A DNA stretch of 52,344 bases from Escherichia virus TH27, in the sequence record MT446401.1, one strand, 5' to 3'. Positions 1,863 through 41,358 of this stretch are shown here, one piece after another. The notes below the pieces were generated by a model. That model was not told the DNA's origin. It saw nothing but the letters and a program-made list of their open reading frames with translations, and did not search any database. The number at the start of each line of letters is the position of its first letter. Position 1 is the stretch's first letter. Position numbers and translations under genes: made by a program.

Positions 1863-2059
1863 GTAAATTCAGGATCGCATTGGTTGACACGACTACCGCC
1901 TTCGGTCATCCGGTCAAGTGGTACGCCATCCAAAAACGTGTAGCCTTGTTCTGGTGGGTTACGGTTGGACACGCCAGCCAGTTATCCCAGGATCGCTACT
2001 GGCTGCATAAGTCCGGAGCACCGCATCGCAAAGAGAAGGTATTGAGGATTGTTGAATGA
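1859..2059 (+). CDS. Hypothetical protein (66 aa)
   Basis: ORF with start overlapping upstream stop (ATGA). Confidence 0.5.
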   Translation: MSKFRIALVDTTTAFGHPVKWYAIQKRVALFWWVTVGHASQLSQDRYWLHKSGAPHRKEKVLRIVE

Positions 2060-2346
2060 AGAAACTAATTTTATTGGCGACCATGGCACTGGCTGGGTGC
2101 GATTTTGGAAGCACCCGAGTAGATTCAGAGGCTCGGCAGAAGATGCCAGTGAACGTAAACGATCGCGTCCAGGTTGTTAAGATTCAGGAGTTCAGGGATG
2201 AACTGGCATATGAGAACGTCAGAGCGATATACGTCATCACCGATAAGGACACTGGTCAGGAATACATCGGCTTAAGCGGTGTCGGCATCGTGGAAGTTGG
2301 TCGCCATGGTTGCGGCAAAGGATGCTCCAGAGAAGATGAGCGATAG
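2056..2346 (+). CDS. Putative lipoprotein (96 aa)
   Basis: N-terminal signal peptide with lipobox LAGC; stop TAG is first triplet of downstream box. Confidence 0.7.
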   Translation: MKKLILLATMALAGCDFGSTRVDSEARQKMPVNVNDRVQVVKIQEFRDELAYENVRAIYVITDKDTGQEYIGLSGVGIVEVGRHGCGKGCSREDER

Positions 2347-24186: not shown

Positions 24187-24917
24187 TTAACGGCAAAATT
24201 AAGATGGCAATCTTCGAACATGCAAAATCAGTTTACCCCAATGAATGTTGCGGGGTGGTCACTCAGAAAGGACGAGTGCAAAAATACTGGCCTATTGACA
24301 ACGTTCACTCGGAACCGGAAAAAGGTTTTCAGCTTCATTCGGTACAGTACGCTTGCGTTGAGGATGACGCCGACCTAACTACAATCGCTATCGTCCATAG
24401 CCATACTGGCGACGGGGCCACCACTTTACCAAGCGCTCACGACCTGTGTATGTTAAACGAGATGGAAGTGCCATGGGTTATTGTAAGTATTCCGGAAGGT
24501 GATATGAGAATCGTTAACCCTGAAGCCATGCCTCTGATTGGTCGCCCATGGTCGCTCGGATCGTTCGATTGCTGGGGATTGGTGATGGCGTGGCACAAAG
24601 AACATGGCGTGATCCTGAATGACTTCCGAAAGCCTTACGAATGGTGGAAGCCTGAATATGGAGAGAATCTATACCAGGACAACTACATTAAGGAGGGGTT
24701 CGTTGAAACAGGAAAAGATCCAGAACCTGGTGATATGGTTATCATGAAACTACAGGCTGATGTGTGGAATCACGCTGGGATTTACCTTGGAAATAATCAA
24801 CTCCTTCACCACGCATTCGGTAAGCTGTCAAAGACGGATATTTACTCAGGCTGGTTCCAGGATCACACAGTTATGGTTTGCAGACATAAGGAATTAAAGA
24901 ATGAAATCATGCTCTAA
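24183..24917 (+). CDS. Tail assembly protein, lambda K-like (244 aa): JAMM/MPN plus NlpC/P60-like
   Basis: HSHTGDGATTLPSAHD metal-binding motif; C-terminal Cys/His; ATGA coupling. Confidence 0.8.
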   Translation: MINGKIKMAIFEHAKSVYPNECCGVVTQKGRVQKYWPIDNVHSEPEKGFQLHSVQYACVEDDADLTTIAIVHSHTGDGATTLPSAHDLCMLNEMEVPWVIVSIPEGDMRIVNPEAMPLIGRPWSLGSFDCWGLVMAWHKEHGVILNDFRKPYEWWKPEYGENLYQDNYIKEGFVETGKDPEPGDMVIMKLQADVWNHAGIYLGNNQLLHHAFGKLSKTDIYSGWFQDHTVMVCRHKELKNEIML

Positions 24918-25395
24918 GTGCGGAGAGGTTAAACCTCTAGATATGTTCTATAAAAATAGCGGTTGCGTTGGTGGATATAGGCATGACTGCAAGAGCTGCG
25001 CAAACAAAGCAAGAAAGATTGCTAGAAGTAGAGATATTGACACAACAAGGGAGTATGGTAGGAAGTATGCTAAAGAGTGGATTTCAAGAAACGCAGAGAA
25101 AACAAAAATGTATGGCTATGAAAAATTAGACAAAAAGAAAATCAGAGATAACGACCTTGATTTGGATTTTTGCATTAATGAAATGAAGAAGCCATGTATT
25201 TATTGTGGATTCACTGATAATCCATGTAACGGACTGGATAGAATTGATAATTCCATTGGTCACATAAAAGAAAACTGCGTACCATGCTGTCAGTTGTGTA
25301 ACGTAACAAGAATGGATAATTACTCACATCAAGAGTTCTTAGAATATATGGCTCCTGGTATAGTGGCGTTAAGAAAAAGTAGAGGTGAAATATAA
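24901..25395 (+). CDS. HNH homing endonuclease (164 aa) inserted between tail genes K and I
   Basis: Cys-rich zinc-ribbon segments, GLDRIDNSIGH...N motif; AT-rich relative to neighbours. Confidence 0.75.
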   Translation: MKSCSKCGEVKPLDMFYKNSGCVGGYRHDCKSCANKARKIARSRDIDTTREYGRKYAKEWISRNAEKTKMYGYEKLDKKKIRDNDLDLDFCINEMKKPCIYCGFTDNPCNGLDRIDNSIGHIKENCVPCCQLCNVTRMDNYSHQEFLEYMAPGIVALRKSRGEI

Positions 25396-25988
25396 TGTTA
25401 AAAACAATTAAGCTATCCGGTTCGCTGGGCCGTCGATTCGGTGTTTTCCATAAGTTCGACGTTGACTCATACCCCGAAGCAATTCGGGCGTTATCCTCCC
25501 AGGTGGAAGGGTTCAAGGAGTTTATGCAGAGTGAGATCGGTTCACGTATGCACTTTGCTGTGTTCGTTGACGGAAAGAATGTAGGCCAGCATGACGAGGC
25601 CGCGTTCAGTTGCGCAAAGGAGATTAGGGTAATCCCGATCCCTACAGGTTCAAAGAGTGGAGGCATGTTCCAAATCGTATTGGGTGCTGCAATGATGGTT
25701 GCCGCATTCTACACTGGCGGCGCATCACTAGCGCTTATGGGCACATTCGCAACGTCAGCATTTATGATGGGTGGGGCAATGGTTCTCGGCGGTGTAATGC
25801 AGATGATTTCACCACAACAGGGCGGAGCTAAGATGGAAATTCAGAGCAGCAAGAATAGGCCATCTTACGCATTTGGCGGGGCAGTGAACACCACGGCGGC
25901 AGGGAACCCGATACCTATCCCATACGGGTACAGAACTGTTGGCGGGGCTACTTTCTCAGCGTACAGCCTGGCAGAAGATATGGACTAA
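25395..25988 (+). CDS. Tail assembly protein, lambda I-like (197 aa)
   Basis: Gly/Ala/Met-rich hydrophobic central segment; position before J. Confidence 0.8.
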   Translation: MLKTIKLSGSLGRRFGVFHKFDVDSYPEAIRALSSQVEGFKEFMQSEIGSRMHFAVFVDGKNVGQHDEAAFSCAKEIRVIPIPTGSKSGGMFQIVLGAAMMVAAFYTGGASLALMGTFATSAFMMGGAMVLGGVMQMISPQQGGAKMEIQSSKNRPSYAFGGAVNTTAAGNPIPIPYGYRTVGGATFSAYSLAEDMD

Positions 25989-25994
25989 TTAATA

Positions 25995-26019
25995 ACCTCC
26001 CTTGTGGAGGTTTTTTTTC
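25995..26019 (+). terminator. Rho-independent terminator / attenuator
   Basis: acctccc-ttg-tggaggt plus T8. Confidence 0.65.
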
Positions 26020-26064
26020 GCCTGTATAATGAAAATCAAACAAACGCACAAAAGGTTAAACATT

Positions 26065-29000
26065 ATGAACAAATATGATGTAACGGGCCGTAAAGGTGGG
26101 AGCAGCAAGCCACATACCCCACAGGAGATGGAAGACAATCTGATCTCAATCAATAAAATCAAGGTTCTCCTGGCTGTAAGTGATGGCGAGGTTGACGGCA
26201 ATTTCTCCATGCAGGATCTGTATCTCAATGATGTGCCAGTTATCGCACCTTCTGGTGAAGTAAACTACAACGGAGTTAAAGCTGAGTTCCGACCAGGTAC
26301 GCAGACTCAGAGTTACATCCAGGGTTTCGCCGACACCGCCGCCGAGTTTACGGTAAATCGTGAGTTGAAGACCACGACACCGTATGTTATCTCAATTACC
26401 AATAAGCAACTTTCGGCGGTCAGGGTTAAAATTATGATGCCGCGCGGTGTTAAAACTGAGAGCAATGGCGATATGGTTGGCGTTAGCGTTAACTACGCGG
26501 TTGACATGGCGGTGGATGGCGGTTCCTACAGTGAAGTCCTTAACGACACGATTAACGGCAAGACAATGAGCGGATATGATCGCACTCGAAGGATTAACCT
26601 CCCGTCATTCAACAGCCAGGTTCTGTTAAGGGTTCGCAGGATTACAGCAGACTCCACTGATGCCAGGCTGGTTGACGCCATTAACATTCAGTCTTACGCA
26701 GAGGTCGTTGACGCCAAGTTCAGATATCCACTGACTGGTTTACTTTACGTTGAGTTTAACTCTGAGCTATTCCCTCAGATCCCAAGCATCAGCGTGAAAA
26801 AGAAATGGAAGCTGATTAACGTACCGACAAACTATAACCCTGAGATGCGTGAGTATAGCGGCACGTGGGATGGGAGTTTTAAAAAAGCATGGTCAAATAA
26901 TCCGGCGTGGGTGCTTTATGATTTGATCACCAATCATCGCTACGGACTCGACCAACGTGAATTAGGGATCGAGGTCGACAAATGGTCACTTTACGACGCC
27001 GGGCAATACTGCGACCAGAAAGTGCCAGATGGTCATGGTGGAACTGAACCACGCTATCTTTGCGATGTGGTTATTCAGTCTCAGGTTGAGGCGTACACCC
27101 TGGTTCGTGATATTTGCTCAATTTTCCGTGGAATGAGCTTTTGGAATGGTGAGAGTTTATCAATCGTTATCGACAGGCCGCGTGAGCCGTCCTACATCTT
27201 CACAAACGATAACGTAATTGATGGTTCGTTCTCTTACACTTTCGCCAGTGAGAAGAGCATGTACACGTCCTGTAACGTGACGTTTGATGATGAGCAGAAT
27301 ATGTATAGCCAGGACGTCGAAGGTGTATTCGACCTTGAGGCATCATTGAGGTTCGGTCACAACCCAACAAGCATCACTGCGATCGGGTGTACGCGTCGAA
27401 GCGAGGCCAACAGGCGCGGACGGTGGATTCTTAAAACAAACCTGCGTAGCACTACGGTGAACTTTGCCACAGGACTGGAAGGCATGATCCCAATGGTTGG
27501 TGACGTAGTTTCAATCGCCGACAATTTCTGGTCAAGCAACCTCACACTTTCACTTTCTGGTCGTGTGATGGAGGTTTCTGGTTTGCAGGTGTTTACGCCA
27601 TTTAAGGTTGATGCTCGCCCAGGTGATTACATAATCATCAATAAGCCGGACGGGAATCCGGTTCGCAGGACTATTGCCAGCGTGTCTCAGGACGGGAAGA
27701 CAATCCAGCTAAACGTTGGATTTGGGTTTGACGTTAAGCCTAATACAGTTTTCGCAATCGACCGCACTGACGTAGCTCTACAGCAATACGTTGTAACATC
27801 AATCGGTAAAGGAGACGGTGATGAGGAGTTTACATATAGCATCACGGCAGTTGAGTACGACCCGAATAAGTACGACGAGATCGACTACGGCGTAAACATT
27901 GATGACAGGCCAACTAGTATTGTCGATCCTGACAACATCATGCCACCAGATAACATCGACGTTTCTTCATACTCCAGGGTTGTTCAGGGGATGAGCGTTG
28001 AAACCATGGTTGTTGGTTGGGATAAGGTTCAGTACGCGAGCCTTTACGATGTGCAGTGGCGCAAGGATAATGGCAACTGGATGAACGTACCGCGCACAGC
28101 TAACTCGGAAGTTGAGGTTGAAGGGATTTATGCAGGCAATTATCACGTGCGCGTAAGGAGCGTGGCAAGTTCAGGAAATACTTCGCCATGGTCTAATATA
28201 GTTAGCGTTGCGCTGACAGGTAAGATCGGAACGCCATCATCGCCTATTAATATCACGGCGTCTGACGATGAGGTGTTTGGTATTAGGATTAAGTGGGGCT
28301 TCCCTACAGATGCAGGAGATACGGCATACACTGAATTGCAGCAGGTTAAGGATAATGGTGACGGCACATACAATCCAGAAAACGCATCGCTGCTAACGCT
28401 TATTCCGTACCCTCAGTACGAATACTGGCACTCAACCTTACCGGCAGGGATGGTCATCTGGTACAGAGCGAGACTGATAGACAGGATCGGAAACCAGTCT
28501 CCATGGACTGACTTTGTTAGAGGAATGACTTCTGACGACGTTTCTTCGATTATCGGTGATATCAAGGTTGATATTGAAGACTCTGATGGATATAAGTACC
28601 TACTACAGAACGCAATTGATAACAGCACTGATATCCAGAATCAGGCCGAATCAATCATTGAAAACGCGCTCGCGAATGATTCTGACGTGAGGATTATGAC
28701 CAAGGAGAATGGAAAGAGGAAAGCGGAATTTAGGCAGGCGGTTGTTCTTATTGCTGATGAGACACAGGCCCGAGTAGATGCTCTAACTGAGCTTAAGGCG
28801 CAGATTGATGATGAAGTGGTTGCATCAATTACTGAGGTTAAAACAGCGCTAGCAACAGAGACTGAGGCAAGAACCTCAGCTGACACGGCGTTAAACGCGA
28901 GGCTTGGTGAGAACGAGGCGGCGTTAACTCAGAAGTTAGAGTCATATGCAACAGCAGACGCTGTTGGTGCACAGTACGGAGTTAAGCTTGGCCTCAAATA

Positions 29001-29439
29001 CCAGGGGGTTGAGTATGGTGCCGGAATGAGCATGGAGCTTGTTGGCTATGGTGGCAATGTTCGCAGCCAGATGATTTTTGACGCTGGAAGGTTCGCGATC
29101 AGTAACGGGATTAGTAGTGGTTCCGGTCAGTGGTCACTGCCTTTTGTAGTGGAAAATAATCAAGTGTTTATGCAAAGCGCATTCATCCAGGACGGTTCAA
29201 TCACGAATGCGAAGATTGGTAACAGGATTCAATCTAACAATTACGTTCAAGGAAGTCAGGGATGGGCTATTGATAAGTCAGGGAGTGCGGAGTTAAACAA
29301 CGCAACAGTTCGTGGTAGTTTGTACGCCAGTAACGGTAACTTCGCCTTTAACGGAACGAACAATACTGTCGTCATAAACAACAACGGAATAACGGTTAAC
29401 TTGCCAAATGGTGGGAGGGTAGTAGTTGGTACGTGGTAA
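26065..29439 (+). CDS. Tail tip / host specificity protein, lambda J-like (1124 aa)
   Basis: Very large ORF after I; start 26065 chosen (RBS AAAAGG) because track start 26002 overlaps the terminator. Confidence 0.85.
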   Translation: MNKYDVTGRKGGSSKPHTPQEMEDNLISINKIKVLLAVSDGEVDGNFSMQDLYLNDVPVIAPSGEVNYNGVKAEFRPGTQTQSYIQGFADTAAEFTVNRELKTTTPYVISITNKQLSAVRVKIMMPRGVKTESNGDMVGVSVNYAVDMAVDGGSYSEVLNDTINGKTMSGYDRTRRINLPSFNSQVLLRVRRITADSTDARLVDAINIQSYAEVVDAKFRYPLTGLLYVEFNSELFPQIPSISVKKKWKLINVPTNYNPEMREYSGTWDGSFKKAWSNNPAWVLYDLITNHRYGLDQRELGIEVDKWSLYDAGQYCDQKVPDGHGGTEPRYLCDVVIQSQVEAYTLVRDICSIFRGMSFWNGESLSIVIDRPREPSYIFTNDNVIDGSFSYTFASEKSMYTSCNVTFDDEQNMYSQDVEGVFDLEASLRFGHNPTSITAIGCTRRSEANRRGRWILKTNLRSTTVNFATGLEGMIPMVGDVVSIADNFWSSNLTLSLSGRVMEVSGLQVFTPFKVDARPGDYIIINKPDGNPVRRTIASVSQDGKTIQLNVGFGFDVKPNTVFAIDRTDVALQQYVVTSIGKGDGDEEFTYSITAVEYDPNKYDEIDYGVNIDDRPTSIVDPDNIMPPDNIDVSSYSRVVQGMSVETMVVGWDKVQYASLYDVQWRKDNGNWMNVPRTANSEVEVEGIYAGNYHVRVRSVASSGNTSPWSNIVSVALTGKIGTPSSPINITASDDEVFGIRIKWGFPTDAGDTAYTELQQVKDNGDGTYNPENASLLTLIPYPQYEYWHSTLPAGMVIWYRARLIDRIGNQSPWTDFVRGMTSDDVSSIIGDIKVDIEDSDGYKYLLQNAIDNSTDIQNQAESIIENALANDSDVRIMTKENGKRKAEFRQAVVLIADETQARVDALTELKAQIDDEVVASITEVKTALATETEARTSADTALNARLGENEAALTQKLESYATADAVGAQYGVKLGLKYQGVEYGAGMSMELVGYGGNVRSQMIFDAGRFAISNGISSGSGQWSLPFVVENNQVFMQSAFIQDGSITNAKIGNRIQSNNYVQGSQGWAIDKSGSAELNNATVRGSLYASNGNFAFNGTNNTVVINNNGITVNLPNGGRVVVGTW

Positions 29440-29445
29440 ATGATT

Positions 29446-29470
29446 AAGCCCCTTTCGGGGCTTTTTCTTT
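29446..29470. terminator. Terminator hairpin between convergent genes (T-run on + strand only)
   Basis: aagcccc-tttc-ggggctt with T-run on + strand; - strand side has only an interrupted run. Confidence 0.75.
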
Positions 29471-30432
29471 TAGTAGAAGTTAGGAATGAATGGAAGTGCC
29501 ATTGATATGTTTGTGTCGAATGGGAATTGAGCGCCAGTCTGAGTTGAATAGTTGCCTATTACAGATCCTGGAACGGCCCTAACGGAGCCGCCAGACATGC
29601 AAACCCCCTTATACCGAAGGTTGTTATACCCACCTGTAACTCTAGTCGTAGCGCCGCATCTAAGAAGTGGGAAGAAGCCACCATTTATTGACTGGTATCC
29701 ATTGTTAATCTGGATGAATCCACCCAGAACGAAAGGTCTGCGAACACTAGAGAAAACAATCTGGCCAGATCCGTTTGACATTGTAAGTCCTGGGCCTGCT
29801 GGCGGCGGCTCATTTCTGAATATAACCAGCTGGACGTAAGTGCTAGCCCCAACGTCATCAATCCCGCCGTAGTTTGAATCCCTGCACCATATCGTACTTC
29901 CATCACTCTCAAGCGACACGTTTGGGTTATCCCACTTACCGAAAGGTATTCCGCTGACAGGAAGTGACGCAGCACCATTTACCTGAATCCCACCAACCCA
30001 TGCAGCAGACATTAGCCTTGAATTGCTTGATATTGCCAGGAAGTCAGTTGAGTTTTCGACAAGCACCCCTGGGCTTGATGAGGACGCTGCAGGTAGAATC
30101 TCAAAGCACTGACCACCAAACTGCAATATCCGACCATTCGCCCCGTTAAAGTTGCTTAAGGTAATCCTTCCGACTCCATCATTTACCTTTGAGAAGCCAT
30201 TCATATAATAAACTTCAGGAACAACATCATATGCATCAACATATACAGCCTGCGTCGGCAAGCAGAATGCAGTTGAGCCAGGAGACATGGATAACCCAAA
30301 ATCCCATGAACTAACCGGAGACGAAATCCCGCTTGTATTTATCGATCCAGTCACAGCAGGCGCTCTCAATCCTGCTGTTATTTCCATCGCTGGCCTTCCA
30401 TCGTTAAGGTCGATCAGTATACCATGCCCCAT
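29470..30432 (-). CDS. G/S/N-rich protein (320 aa), possible receptor-binding or fiber-associated protein
   Basis: Start moved to ATG at 30432 (RBS AAGGAG 7 nt upstream, just after lipoprotein stop); function inferred only from composition and position. Confidence 0.6.
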   Translation of the reverse strand: MGHGILIDLNDGRPAMEITAGLRAPAVTGSINTSGISSPVSSWDFGLSMSPGSTAFCLPTQAVYVDAYDVVPEVYYMNGFSKVNDGVGRITLSNFNGANGRILQFGGQCFEILPAASSSSPGVLVENSTDFLAISSNSRLMSAAWVGGIQVNGAASLPVSGIPFGKWDNPNVSLESDGSTIWCRDSNYGGIDDVGASTYVQLVIFRNEPPPAGPGLTMSNGSGQIVFSSVRRPFVLGGFIQINNGYQSINGGFFPLLRCGATTRVTGGYNNLRYKGVCMSGGSVRAVPGSVIGNYSTQTGAQFPFDTNISMALPFIPNFY

Positions 30433-30433
30433 C

Positions 30434-30676
30434 TTACCACTCCTTAGAACCGTGATCTGCAACCGAACCGCCGTAGCCGCCACCTGCTTTTGATTCAATA
30501 CCAGCATAGCGAATATCAACCTCACCAGCTGGAACCACCACGCCACCTTTCCACTTCGCAACGCAAACATCACCAGCCTGGGTAGCGCACCAGCCGTCAG
30601 GTCGGTGGCCGGAAGAACAACCTACAGTCATGATTACTGCTGCTGCGATGATTGCTGATTTGATGAAGTTAGTCAT
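30434..30676 (-). CDS. Lipoprotein (80 aa), possible superinfection-exclusion lipoprotein
   Basis: Signal peptide with lipobox VGCSS; RBS AAGGA; sits beside receptor-binding genes. Confidence 0.7.
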
Positions 30677-30716
30677 TTTTGAATCCTTATTAAGTATGTT
30701 TCGTTTCGATGGAGTA

Positions 30717-30756
30717 ACTATACACCAACCATTAATTTAGTTTTAGCAATTCGTGC
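30717..30756 (-). promoter_or_regulatory. Palindromic box plus TATAGT (- strand) with CATCGAAACGAA leader
   Basis: Box 30742..30756, hexamer complement 30717..30722, leader 30700..30711; overlaps end of Rha-like gene. Confidence 0.5.
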
Positions 30757-31361
30757 GTTTTACCCGTCAGTGCGATAATTGTATCTTTCGATACCTCCAG
30801 CTTCATTTGTAATCCTTCGCATTGAGCCTGATATGAATACACGTTTTCCTGCGACTCATAATATCTATTGTTTTCGATTCGAATATTAGCCACCAAATCG
30901 TCGATTTGAGAGCCAGAACCTTCAGACTCTAGAATCTTATCAAGTACCTTGCTTTGCGCGTAGTACAGGTCTTCTATGCGGTGCTGCGCTGAAATGGCTC
31001 TATACTTCTGTTGGTGCTCATCAATAACCTCGTCAATTGAAACCATTTTGGAGTTGTGAGATTTAAGAACATTAACTTCATGCTCAAGCGACTTTATTTT
31101 CTGGATCATCTTCATTCTGATTTTTGCGCTGTATTTTGCAACAAGGCATAGCGTGTGATCCTTATCCAGAATGGCTACGTTATGCATCTTTCCTTTATGA
31201 TATTCTTGCTCCTCAAATTGAGGAACAAGGTTTTCTCCATATAAATCAACATACATAGCATTGACATCCCTTATAATGTTGTCGTGACGAACTCCTGTAA
31301 TCTTGGCAATCTCAAGGCTGGTCATGGTCATTTCTTCGTTTGTGATGGTTAATTCGTTCAT
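30732..31361 (-). CDS. Rha-family phage regulatory protein (209 aa)
   Basis: N-terminal [19 protein letters not shown] segment characteristic of Rha-type regulators; RBS GGAG. Confidence 0.7.
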
Positions 31362-31903
31362 TTTTCAATCTCCATTAGTGATCGCGTGATTGCGATGCGT
31401 GTATTTTGCACACTTTAATCTGATTGTCTTTAGCTATTCGTGCTTTTTGGTGTCAAATATGCAAATGCAACGATATACGCGTAACCGATGTAACTCGATG
31501 TATACAATCTAATCCTCGGAAAATTGTATACGCCCTGTTACGCCGATTTACGCTATAGTTACATTAAAATATCTATATATATCAACCTTTTACTCTTATT
31601 ATTATTATTATATATATTACTGTGTATATCGTGTAACTACTTCTATAGAGTGTTCCGATTATAAATTTCTAATATGGTTATTTATACAGTATTTAATCAC
31701 AAATACACCAATGCACCCTCAGCGAAAAATGATATACACGATATACACACTGTTTACATTAAGCTATAGCTGGGCTGGATAGCCATTTTATGTAACTAAC
31801 GCCATTGCATACACGCAATTACAAATATCTACACGTAACCACTTGACTAACGCAACCAAGCGTGTATAGTTAGCCACATCAACAACGAACGAGGATTAAA
31901 GAG
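31362..31903. other. 540-bp AT-rich intergenic region with TATAC(A/G)C-type repeats between divergent operons
   Basis: No ORF; repeated atacac/atacgc units, tandem gatatacac x2 at 31730..31749, (TTA)5 at 31596..31610. Confidence 0.7.
31843..31870 (+). promoter_or_regulatory. sigma70-type promoter (TTGACT-16-TATAGT)
   Basis: TTGACT 31843..31848, 16-nt spacer, TATAGT 31865..31870. Confidence 0.55.
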
Positions 31904-40594: not shown

Positions 40595-41019
40595 TTACAG
40601 ACAAAGGCGACTACCTGGAGTATTACACTCCAGACAAATCGGATACATGGACCGAAAAAAAACACCAGGTCGATTGCGTGACCTGGACTAATGTAAATCA
40701 CTCTTACCTTCTGTTCTGGCACACCGTTAATGAGGGCAAGAAAACTATGCATTCGGCGCTGGTTGACGCTCAGAGCGGATTATTGAAGGGTGTTAGTGAC
40801 TTTGTATTCCTTCTCGGCCCGTTCGGTAAATATCCTTTCGGGGCCATAGAATTAAAGCGGGTGAATAAGAGTGGGAAAGGCAAAGCATCACCAGTCAGCA
40901 AGGAGCAGAAAGATTTCCTTCGTCGCGTCCGTGAGCGTGGCGGGTTCGCGGCGGTGGCGTACGGCCAGGAGGAATATAAGAAGGCCGTTGCAGACATGCT
41001 GAATAGCACGAATTGCTAA
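40591..41019 (+). CDS. VRR-NUC domain nuclease (142 aa)
   Basis: GVSDFVFL...GAIELKR matches VRR-NUC (PD-(D/E)xK) signature; ends in box-encoded STNC-stop. Confidence 0.7.
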   Translation: MITDKGDYLEYYTPDKSDTWTEKKHQVDCVTWTNVNHSYLLFWHTVNEGKKTMHSALVDAQSGLLKGVSDFVFLLGPFGKYPFGAIELKRVNKSGKGKASPVSKEQKDFLRRVRERGGFAAVAYGQEEYKKAVADMLNSTNC

Positions 41020-41085: not shown

Positions 41086-41358
41086 ATGAAAAAGTCAATC
41101 ATCGCTCTACTGGCAGTTGTGGCAATTGCAGGTTGTGCAGAAGATACCAAGTTTTACGATTGTGGCAAGGAATCCTTTACAGTAACCAAGTCGCAGATTG
41201 TTTCAGATAAGGGCGTTGTTATTGAGCGTGAAGGCGATCACTACGAACTTCAAACTTTCTTAGGGAAGGCGGTTTACAACGTGACTGAAAGTCAGGTTAA
41301 AGTTAGCGTCGGCGGGTTCGTCGCTGTAAACAACTGTAAAGTGACTGAGGTTAAATAA
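41086..41358 (+). CDS. Lipoprotein (90 aa)
   Basis: Signal peptide with lipobox IAGC; RBS AAAGGAAA. Confidence 0.7.
   Translation: MKKSIIALLAVVAIAGCAEDTKFYDCGKESFTVTKSQIVSDKGVVIEREGDHYELQTFLGKAVYNVTESQVKVSVGGFVAVNNCKVTEVK

Follow-up and report, generated by a model that had tools for sequence, protein, structure and literature searches.

The locus lies in the genome of a T1-like, virulent phage of the Drexlerviridae, close to Nouzillyvirus, and was analysed within a 52,344-nt stretch of its DNA, here called the window. It comprises two minus-strand genes, one encoding an 80-aa lipoprotein (30434..30676) and the other, immediately downstream, a 320-aa protein (29470..30432), and the positions of both open reading frames match exactly those given in the preliminary description. 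The start of the second gene was set at the ATG at 30432 because all homologues begin with M-x-x-G-I, while the automatic open reading frame runs on to an upstream GTG. These are not chance reading frames, given the Pfam E-values of 6e-38 for the lipoprotein and 4e-136 for the 320-aa protein. Read from the sequence, the lipoprotein gene has a Shine-Dalgarno motif, AAGGA (30684..30688, minus strand), 7 nt upstream of its ATG, and that of the downstream gene, AAGGAG (30440..30445, minus strand), is embedded in the lipoprotein-coding sequence, in its final codons. Across the junction, the minus-strand sequence is AAGGAG-TGG-TAA-G-ATG, with 1 nt between the stop codon (TAA, 30434-30436) and the next start codon (ATG, 30430-30432), and the two genes are translationally coupled. 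An overlap or a 1-2 nt junction likewise occurs in 13 related IMG/VR loci and in the GenBank relatives examined, and the lipoprotein gene is immediately upstream of the gene for the receptor-binding protein (RBP) in all convergent-type IMG/VR loci (13/13, the two genes overlapping or 1-2 nt apart).

The pair sits directly downstream of a J-like tail-tip gene (26068..29439, plus strand; likely start ATG 26068), whose product matches the Pfam families FNIII-A_GpJ, Phage-tail_3 and Phage_Tail_Tip. The convergence with J noted previously holds: J ends at 29439 and the RBP gene at 29470, leaving 30 nt between their stop codons, so that the RBP gene adjoins the 3' end of the gpJ homologue. The RBP loci reported in the BASEL study have the same layout, and in temperate relatives the RBP homologue is encoded directly after J on the same strand. 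Between the convergent genes lies a GC-rich hairpin, AAGCCCC-TTTC-GGGGCTT (29446..29463), whose T-tract is good on the plus strand and weaker on the minus; at the same position, terminators are annotated on both strands in AHP24, and one terminator in Rogue1. On the other side of the pair, 55 nt upstream of the lipoprotein gene and on the same strand, lies a gene that the preliminary description does not mention, encoding a 209-aa Rha/anti-repressor-like protein (30732..31361; Pfam Phage_pRha, E=3e-11; phrog_8235).

The N-terminus of the lipoprotein consists of a basic n-region, a hydrophobic core and the lipobox T-V-G-C with Cys20, the sequence CSSG beginning after residue 19, and the serine at position +2 predicts sorting to the outer membrane. 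The protein matches Pfam PF24052 from end to end (score 129 bits, gathering threshold 27; E=6e-38; all 80 profile positions covered), a model also matched by Rtp45, the Bas18 lipoprotein and mEp021 gp81, and it aligns over its full length with PDB chain 9rps_D, which is Rtp45 (E=1.2e-32). Its identity is 93% to OzMSK_039, 85% to the Bas01 protein, 79% to Rtp45 and 38% to the Bas18 lipoprotein. By sequence comparison, Cys30 and Cys38, the disulfide pair of Rtp45, are kept, and residues 30-35 read CATQAG here and CATQAS in Rtp45, in which this segment forms a strand paired with residues 318-323 of LptD (PMC12685063); a five-residue insertion (residues 62-66) is present relative to Rtp45. Because AlphaFold3 mispredicts both Rtp45 and its LptDE complex, according to the authors of the structure (PMC12685063), the binding mode of the lipoprotein is beyond confirmation by modelling. 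A homology search against the Cor and Llp families had been suggested, and membership in either was rejected when searches of Pfam, PHROGs and PDB sequences detected no such similarity: Pfam at E<=0.1 gave PF24052 and no Llp-related family; PHROGs at E<=0.01 gave only phrog_4281 and no match to the Cor profile (phrog_1119); and a search of PDB sequences at E<=1 retrieved Rtp45 and ribosomal protein L27 alone, although the PDB copy searched may hold no Llp chain.

The 320-aa protein is rich in glycine (13.4%), serine (11.6%) and asparagine (7.2%), and no transmembrane segment was found in it (highest Kyte-Doolittle 19-residue mean, 0.97). It matches the whole of Pfam DUF6453/PF20051 (score 453.5 bits, gathering threshold 25; E=4e-136; all 291 profile positions covered) and, over residues 1-320, PDB chain 9rpt_C, the Oekolampad RBP on LptDE (E=4e-67). 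Its AlphaFold2 model is all-beta (pLDDT 86.8, pTM 0.87), and a Foldseek comparison of that model with the PDB returned 9rpt_C as the sole significant match (E=5e-21, with a target-normalised TM-score of 0.90). Over residues 1-320, identity is 91% to OzMSK_038, 44% to the Bas18 RBP and 40% to the Bas01 RBP; these values place it within an RBP family as defined in a 2026 preprint, by identity above 30% with coverage exceeding 99% to RBPs of phages whose dependence on LptD was assigned by experiment. The 29 residues that differ between this protein and the OzMSK RBP could sit in receptor-contacting loops.

The two further lipoproteins that had been pointed out in the window, at 2056..2346 and 41086..41358, do carry true lipoboxes (LAGC and IAGC, respectively). 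Searches of Pfam, PHROGs and the PDB with these two proteins yielded only families of unknown function, a generic lipid-attachment motif and chance-level matches, and neither has the C-terminal transmembrane segment that a u-spanin requires. These results speak neither for nor against the extra exclusion role that had been proposed for them.

The reading of the pair as a receptor-blocking lipoprotein with an RBP, put forward in the preliminary description, is upheld by homologues that have been characterised experimentally, namely Rtp45 on LptDE (9RPS), the Oekolampad RBP on LptDE (9RPT) and the OzMSK proteins. The lipoprotein likewise stands as a candidate for superinfection exclusion, with 79% identity to Rtp45, an exclusion lipoprotein solved on LptDE. 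The best explanation, which we regard as highly probable, is that the cassette encodes the LptD-binding RBP and the exclusion lipoprotein of a T1-like phage; the receptor predicted from the protein sequences is LptD, not FhuA.

Database labels would suggest something else: the 320-aa protein is a 'membrane protein' in RefSeq and belongs to the category 'moron, auxiliary metabolic gene and host takeover' in PHROGs. It might then be a non-structural protein, accompanied by a lipoprotein that acts as a Cor/Llp-type FhuA blocker or as an envelope or lysis factor, and it fits such a role that the pair appears to be transcribed apart from the structural operon, from a module shared with non-structural genes. 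We rejected these labels, and hold this explanation to be very improbable, in view of the lack of a hydrophobic segment, the all-beta model and the homology to a solved RBP; moreover, temperate relatives place the gene directly after J, and the homologue in mEp021 carries the annotation of a virion structural protein, which suggests a location in the virion. The PHROGs and PDB results speak against a Cor/Llp-type lipoprotein, and a lysis role is opposed by the u-spanin of relatives, which is encoded elsewhere, adjoining the SAR endolysin. A nearer rival, though still an improbable one, accepts an RBP and an exclusion lipoprotein and assigns them a terminal receptor other than LptD among the outer-membrane proteins, the specificity having switched within the DUF6453 fold. 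The 320-aa protein is indeed just 40-44% identical to the RBPs that have been solved or genetically mapped; for mEp021, whose cassette is of the DUF6453/PF24052 type, OmpA was reported as the main receptor in a study in which LptD was untried (PMC11893012); and Bas01 requires NupG besides LptD, through its J domain (2026 preprint). Against such a switch stand the 91% identity of the RBP to that of the LptD-dependent OzMSK and the 79-93% identity of the lipoprotein to proteins of LptD phages, including one solved on LptD. An exclusion protein, furthermore, has to fit the receptor of its own phage, and each RBP family correlated with one receptor in the screen of the 2026 preprint.

How the pair is transcribed is a separate matter. 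Upstream of the lipoprotein gene, a promoter-like module on the minus strand (30717..30757) consists of the box CGCACGAATTGCTAAA at 30742-30757, which overlaps the final codons of the Rha-like gene, a 19-nt spacer and the -10-like hexamer TATAGT at 30717-30722; a conserved TCCATCGAAACGAA follows 2 nt past the hexamer, beyond these limits. The box occurs 13 times in the window (0.6 copies expected), and alignment of the copies reveals an invariant TAnnnT 19-21 nt downstream. The box/-10 module described previously is thus real, but its spacing is not that of sigma-70, the TTGCTA of the box lying 21 nt from the -10 hexamer. A consensus scan of the minus strand at 30677-30760 found no sigma-70 promoter before the lipoprotein gene, and over the region as a whole it gave 7 hits against a shuffle expectation of 7.1. 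No Rfam family reached threshold in the window, and a literature search for the box sequence returned one paper, on an unrelated subject. The module, shared across the family, would drive the pair and looks like an activator-dependent promoter class undescribed for T1-like phages; its role as a promoter is suggested by its sequence and by the homologous loci, and we treat this assignment as weak. The pair could instead be the distal part of a three-gene transcript from upstream of the Rha-like gene, with the box at 30742-30757 serving as a recombination joint or regulator site, not a promoter; we consider this unlikely, yet far from negligible. In keeping with it, the 55-nt interval between the Rha-like and lipoprotein genes contains no predicted terminator, the spacing from box to -10 is unfit for sigma-70, and the Rha-like gene, which has a box of its own at 31429-31444 (minus strand), is flanked by two boxes exactly where P817, which lacks this gene, has a single one. 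Two observations argue for a promoter: every box (13/13) is followed by TAnnnT at 19-21 nt and then by a gene in the same orientation, and P817, Bas01 and Rogue1-like phages have the module before the lipoprotein gene without a Rha-like gene upstream on that strand.

The cassette differs from that of the closest genome relatives, and the last ~53 codons of J (29278-29436) vary together with it. Compared with phage TH30, the J protein shows 66-100% identity per 50-residue window (mostly >80%) up to about residue 1050, and 42-54% thereafter; the J-like protein is the predicted docking partner of the RBP. This phage combines an RBP of the Rogue1/OzMSK clade (41% identical to Rtp44) with a lipoprotein of the Rtp45 clade (79%), and pSf-2 combines an RBP 70% identical to the one described here with a lipoprotein of the Oekolampad clade. 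These pairings are evidence that the subtypes of the two proteins are combined independently of each other among phages. A broader proposal, which includes cross-exclusion and an extension to the box module, is that the cassette is a three-part mosaic of J tip, RBP and lipoprotein whose parts recombine independently; we offer it tentatively, at somewhat less than even probability. Should each subtype of the lipoprotein lock LptD against all DUF6453 RBPs, a 60-residue lipoprotein would cross-exclude all LptD-binding phages; it would also be a minimal ligand, and a transferable one, for the periplasmic side of this essential drug target.

Under the preferred explanation of an LptD-binding RBP with its exclusion lipoprotein, the terminal receptor of the phage would be the essential lipopolysaccharide exporter LptD. 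The RBP would be attached non-covalently to the J-like fibre at its C-terminal tip, and the loop-bearing end of the RBP would be driven far into the lumen of the opened LptD barrel, an insertion that would commit the phage to DNA ejection. In the infected cell, the pair would probably be transcribed from the box/-10 module at 30717-30757, possibly with read-through from the Rha-like gene, and the lipoprotein would be made, exported and lipidated at Cys20, Ser +2 directing it to the outer membrane, into the inner leaflet. By analogy with Rtp45, it would there bind the periplasmic side of the LptD barrel and force extracellular loop 4 outward. With loop 4 displaced, the phage's own RBP, and probably that of any LptD-binding phage, would be unable to bind; superinfection would be prevented, and progeny would not be wasted on infected cells or debris.

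Such loci have already been described (they were recognised in 2021, and the mechanism was solved in 2025), and the scientific gain from this one is small. Its practical value lies in making the receptor of the phage predictable from sequence as LptD, which is essential and conserved and is therefore attractive for phage therapy and phage steering, and in the prediction that the lipoprotein would protect cells from this phage and its relatives. The analysis also corrects the database labels, in that DUF6453 proteins are RBPs and neither a 'membrane protein' nor a 'moron', and the conserved promoter-like module merits separate study.

Among known systems, the Cor lipoproteins of phi80, N15 and T1 are small (pro)phage lipoproteins, encoded near tail-fibre genes, that block the phage's own receptor. 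Their target is FhuA, and the lipoprotein described here has no match to their family (phrog_1119) at E<=0.01. T5 follows the same logic with pb5 (Oad), a monomeric RBP located at the central fibre's tip, and Llp, a small periplasmic lipoprotein that attaches to the receptor from within and renders it unusable by the RBP, as the pair described here would; the T5 proteins, however, have no detectable sequence similarity to this pair, and their receptor is FhuA. Llp works by long-range allostery; Rtp45, in contrast, displaces a loop physically (PMC12685063). LptD is also the receptor for DEV gp54, an RBP of a Pseudomonas phage. Phagiculus, the sole member of the Rogunavirinae covered by the 2026 preprint, uses FhuA and is uninformative here, and a literature search found no link between Rogunavirus and LptD.

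Closer to this locus is mEp021, which has a DUF6453 and PF24052 pair (gp80 and gp81, the latter named Lpp021) convergent with J, with gp80 annotated as a virion structural protein, and in which cells expressing Lpp021 from a plasmid exclude both mEp021 and mEp515 (PMC11893012); it differs in being temperate and in having an RBP 42% identical to the one described here. The Oekolampad/Bas18 RBP, with structures 9RPT, 9RPW and 9RQI (9RPT from PMC12685063), is a DUF6453 protein, collinear over its full length and of the same fold (TM-score 0.90 to the 9RPT chain), from a locus that is also convergent with J; its phage is a Dhillonvirus, the RBP is 44% identical, and the lipoprotein is of another subtype (38% identical). 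Rtp45 of phage Rtp, whose structure on LptDE is PDB 9RPS (Dunbar et al., PNAS 2025; PMC12685063), attaches to LptD on its periplasmic face and forces extracellular loop 4 outward, blocking RBP binding (PMC12685063). It shares with the lipoprotein described here the PF24052 family (79% identity), the lipobox VGCSSG, Cys30 and Cys38, a near-identical 30-35 strand and VVVPAGEVD hairpin region, and a gene position directly upstream of the RBP gene. The protein described here differs in its five additional residues (62-66), in a diverged C-terminal third and in its partner RBP, which shares only 41% identity with Rtp44. The closest counterpart of the complete pair is found in vB_EcoS_OzMSK (PQ659294; PMC13035648), in which the RBP OzMSK_038 (91%) and the lipoprotein OzMSK_039 (93%) are encoded in the same gene order on another backbone (45 kb, Rtp-like), with a DNA methylase gene, not a Rha-like one, upstream on the same strand. 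OzMSK fails to plate on two lptD mutants, and an engineered deletion of loop 11 blocks it (PMC13035648).

The window comes from a virulent T1-like siphovirus in the family Drexlerviridae. Over the whole genome its top matches are the Nouzillyvirus phages TH30, TH21, P817 and ESCO41 (~85-90% nucleotide identity); at the locus studied here, P817 ranks highest by DNA (88.6%), followed by the Rogue1/JK06/AHP24 group (~82%). The minus strand of 29470-30676 carries two adjacent ORFs. The upstream ORF (30434..30676) encodes an 80-aa lipoprotein (...CSSG). Its signal sequence opens with a short basic n-region, continues into a hydrophobic core and ends in a lipobox with Cys20; with serine at +2, the protein is predicted to be sorted to the outer membrane. 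The downstream ORF (29470..30432) encodes a protein of 320 aa from an ATG at 30432; the mechanical ORF extends to a GTG at 30573, and the start was set at the ATG because all homologues start with M-x-x-G-I-L-I-D-L-N-D-G-R-P. A single base separates the two genes (minus-strand junction AAGGAG-TGG-TAA-G-ATG), with the Shine-Dalgarno sequence of the second lying within the first. Glycine makes up 13.4% of the 320-aa protein, serine 11.6% and asparagine 7.2%, and a search for a hydrophobic segment found none. Between its stop codon and that of the convergent J-like tail-tip gene J (Pfam matches FNIII-A_GpJ, Phage-tail_3 and Phage_Tail_Tip) are 30 nt, which include a GC-rich hairpin. The mechanical J ORF begins at TTG 26002 and the TH30 homologue begins where ATG 26068 stands; from that ATG, the N-terminus reads MNKYDVTGRKGG... 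in the window and MIKNSVVTGRKGG... in TH30, so that J probably comprises 1123 aa rather than 1145. Every element of the preliminary description, namely a lipoprotein gene and a G/S/N-rich 320-aa gene convergent with J, is thus borne out by the sequence.

The reading attached to that arrangement, a receptor-blocking lipoprotein paired with a receptor-binding protein (RBP), proved essentially correct through homology to PF24052/Rtp45 and to the DUF6453/Oekolampad RBP. The lipoprotein matches the Pfam "Phage lipoprotein family" PF24052 end to end (E=6e-38) and, among solved structures, a single protein, chain D of 9RPS (E=1.2e-32), in which cryo-EM resolved Shigella LptDE(M) together with Rtp45, the lipoprotein by which phage Rtp excludes superinfection (PMC12685063). 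It is 79% identical to Rtp45 and keeps both the Cys30-Cys38 disulfide pair and the strand at residues 30-35 (CATQAG in the window, CATQAS in Rtp45), which in Rtp45 forms a β-sheet with LptD residues 318-323 (PMC12685063). The 320-aa protein belongs to Pfam DUF6453 (PF20051; E=4e-136) and also matches one protein only among solved structures, chain C of 9RPT, 9RPW and 9RQI (E=4e-67, residues 1-320), which is the Oekolampad (Bas18) RBP inserted in an open state of LptDE (PMC12685063). A database search yielded 115 clusters, all containing PF20051, from which a 52-sequence alignment was drawn; the resulting AlphaFold2 model is all-beta (pLDDT 86.8, pTM 0.87), and its sole significant Foldseek match in the PDB is 9rpt_C (E=5e-21, TM-score 0.90 normalised to the target chain), the next-best match having E=0.13. 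RefSeq phage records call DUF6453 proteins "membrane protein", and PHROGs (phrog_1265) files them under "moron, auxiliary metabolic gene and host takeover"; the solved RBP structure contradicts the one label as well as the other. Distant DUF6453 homologues (24-36% identity) occur in ~77-kb Escherichia/Shigella phages such as Bas87, Bas89 and Bas91, in ~50 kb Klebsiella phages, in one Vibrio phage and in Enterobacter/Citrobacter/Pseudomonas chromosomes or plasmids.

An independent argument points to LptD as the receptor of this phage: the target of an exclusion protein has to be the receptor that its own phage uses, and the window lipoprotein is closely homologous to one solved in complex with LptD. 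Relative to RBPs that have been solved or genetically mapped, the window RBP is 44% identical to that of Bas18 and 40-41% identical to those of Bas01 and Rtp (Rtp44). This gap is bridged by phage OzMSK, which infects neither of two BASEL lptD mutants and is blocked by an engineered deletion of LptD loop 11 (PMC13035648), since its RBP, OzMSK_038, is 91% identical to that of the window; the 81-aa ORF upstream, OzMSK_039, is 93% identical to the window lipoprotein. A 2026 preprint assigns one receptor (FhuA, BtuB, LptD or YncD) to each RBP family, and the window RBP falls within its family limits (>30% identity, >99% coverage). The pair is a member of the DUF6453/PF24052 LptD cassette, first put forward by the comparative genomics of the BASEL study (PMC8594841) and established structurally in 2025 (PMC12685063). 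The window pair is an ordinary case of this cassette, for which function and structures have already been published; what stands out most is that RBP and lipoprotein subtypes assort independently, together with a conserved box/-10 module.

By homology, the RBP would be a monomer of two β-sandwiches, whose conserved base, with a near-invariant N-terminus (M1-G4-I7-N10-D11-I18-R23-P25 in the alignment) and C-terminal P317-Y320, is probably attached to the tip of J, an idea put forward in PMC13035648. The variable loop end would enter the LptD lumen and touch extracellular loops 3-5 and 11. The lipoprotein, once lipidated and delivered to the outer membrane, would lodge between LptE and LptM, against strands 5-8 of the barrel on its periplasmic side, and extend a hairpin up the lumen; extracellular loop 4 would thereby be displaced as much as 20 angstroms, a change incompatible with RBP binding.

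The specificity of the family for LptD has to be weighed against mEp021. Its gp81 is a PF24052 member (E=6e-31) that, expressed from a plasmid, excludes mEp021 and mEp515 (PMC11893012), an experiment in support of the exclusion mechanism, and the adjoining DUF6453 gene, annotated as a virion structural protein, forms a pair with it at 1762-2915 of the mEp021 locus. Despite this similar cassette, OmpA was reported as the main receptor of mEp021, LptD lying outside the tests of that paper (PMC11893012). This leaves two readings: mEp021 requires OmpA as a primary or an indirect factor, or the DUF6453/PF24052 family is not strictly LptD-specific. Among IMG/VR loci, 67 of temperate or prophage type carry a DUF6453 gene (42-48% identical) directly after J on the same strand, a position that fits a tail component; a lipoprotein gene lies immediately upstream of it in none of the 67. 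In the locus inspected among them, the DUF6453 gene (1986-2960) overlaps the end of J and a fibre-like gene follows.

The box/-10 module from which the two genes were proposed to be transcribed does exist. Searching for the 16-mer AGCACGAATTGCTAAA with ≤3 mismatches returned 13 copies in the window (0.6 expected), at 1578, 3403, 7117, 33392, 36862, 41005, 42319 and 44885 on the plus strand and at 30757, 31444, 37947, 48938 and 50500 on the minus strand. The layout of this promoter-like module is AAAT-AGCACGAATTGCTAAA, a spacer of 19-21 nt that often forms a hairpin, and a TAnnnT hexamer (13/13 copies), usually followed by a TCATCGAAACGAA-like stretch and then by a Shine-Dalgarno sequence and start codon oriented the same way. 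One minus-strand copy precedes the lipoprotein gene (30742-30757, with TATAGT at 30717-30722), making co-transcription of the pair from it plausible; a second minus-strand copy (31429-31444) precedes the Rha-like gene (30732..31361). Read-through from the Rha-like gene into the lipoprotein gene is possible as well, since no terminator is predicted between them. At 21-23 nt from the hexamer, the TTGCTA within the box is too distant to serve as a sigma-70 -35 element, and a consensus promoter scan returned nothing at the lipoprotein-gene module. Given this spacing, the box, which contains the dyad AGCA-N5-TGCT and is centred near -41, looks like the binding site of a dimeric activator. The module is present in 329 T1-like phage records, Klebsiella and Erwinia phages included; no Rfam family matches it, and a literature search found no relevant paper with the box sequence.

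The locus is modular. In a high-identity (megablast) search, the two closest genomes overall lacked matches to ~24900-31464 (TH30) and ~24900-30580 (TH21) of the window. In place of the pair, TH30 carries three unrelated genes (102, 216 and 112 aa; locus 455-1836) convergent with J, whose products have no Pfam match; the 112-aa protein has a Sec-type signal peptide. J itself is 66-100% identical between the window and TH30 per 50-residue window, mostly >80%, up to about residue 1050, and cassette-specific divergence starts only after residue ~1070, which puts the left breakpoint within J and the exchanged unit at ~29278-31464, containing the J tip, the hairpin, the RBP, the lipoprotein and the Rha-like gene. 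Within this unit, sequence comparison indicates that RBP and lipoprotein subtypes are unlinked and assort independently: relative to phage Rtp, the RBP is 41% identical to Rtp44 and the lipoprotein 79% to Rtp45; the RBP of pSf-2 is 70% identical to that of the window, and its lipoprotein is of Oekolampad type (68% identical to that of Bas18, 41% to that of the window); and in the IMG/VR survey RBPs at 69-70% identity are paired with either lipoprotein type. The Rha/anti-repressor-like gene (209 aa) sits exactly between two box copies (30732-31448). In P817 the gene is missing, and what stands there is a single box with the last codons (HELLKLN*) kept, so the gene has the look of a cassette that recombination between boxes added or removed; ESCO41 has the layout of the window. 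In Rogue1 and AHP24, an anti-repressor/regulatory gene lies on the opposite strand and resembles the Rha-like gene in its 630-nt length.

Two other lipoproteins are encoded on the plus strand. The 96-aa product of 2056..2346 (MKKLILLATMALAGC then DF; lipobox LAGC) has Asp at +2 and is accordingly predicted to stay in the inner membrane; its gene lies among small early genes, its start overlapping the stop of the preceding small ORF. The 90-aa product of 41086..41358 (MKKSIIALLAVVAIAGC then AE; lipobox IAGC, Ala at +2) is encoded in the replication module, with the helicase region on one side and a 242-aa gene on the other; its gene immediately follows a perfect box/-10 module at 41005. They belong to phrog_16585 and phrog_7420, respectively, PHROG families without known function, and Pfam and PDB searches gave no informative match for either. 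The 41086..41358 product weakly matches a Cor profile (E=0.0028) over residues 1-44 only, roughly the signal peptide plus the N-terminal half of the mature chain.

Searches of Pfam, PHROGs and PDB sequences detected no similarity of the window pair to T5 pb5/Llp or to the Cor family. What it has in common with these systems is the logic of an RBP accompanied by a lipoprotein acting on the periplasmic side to block the receptor.
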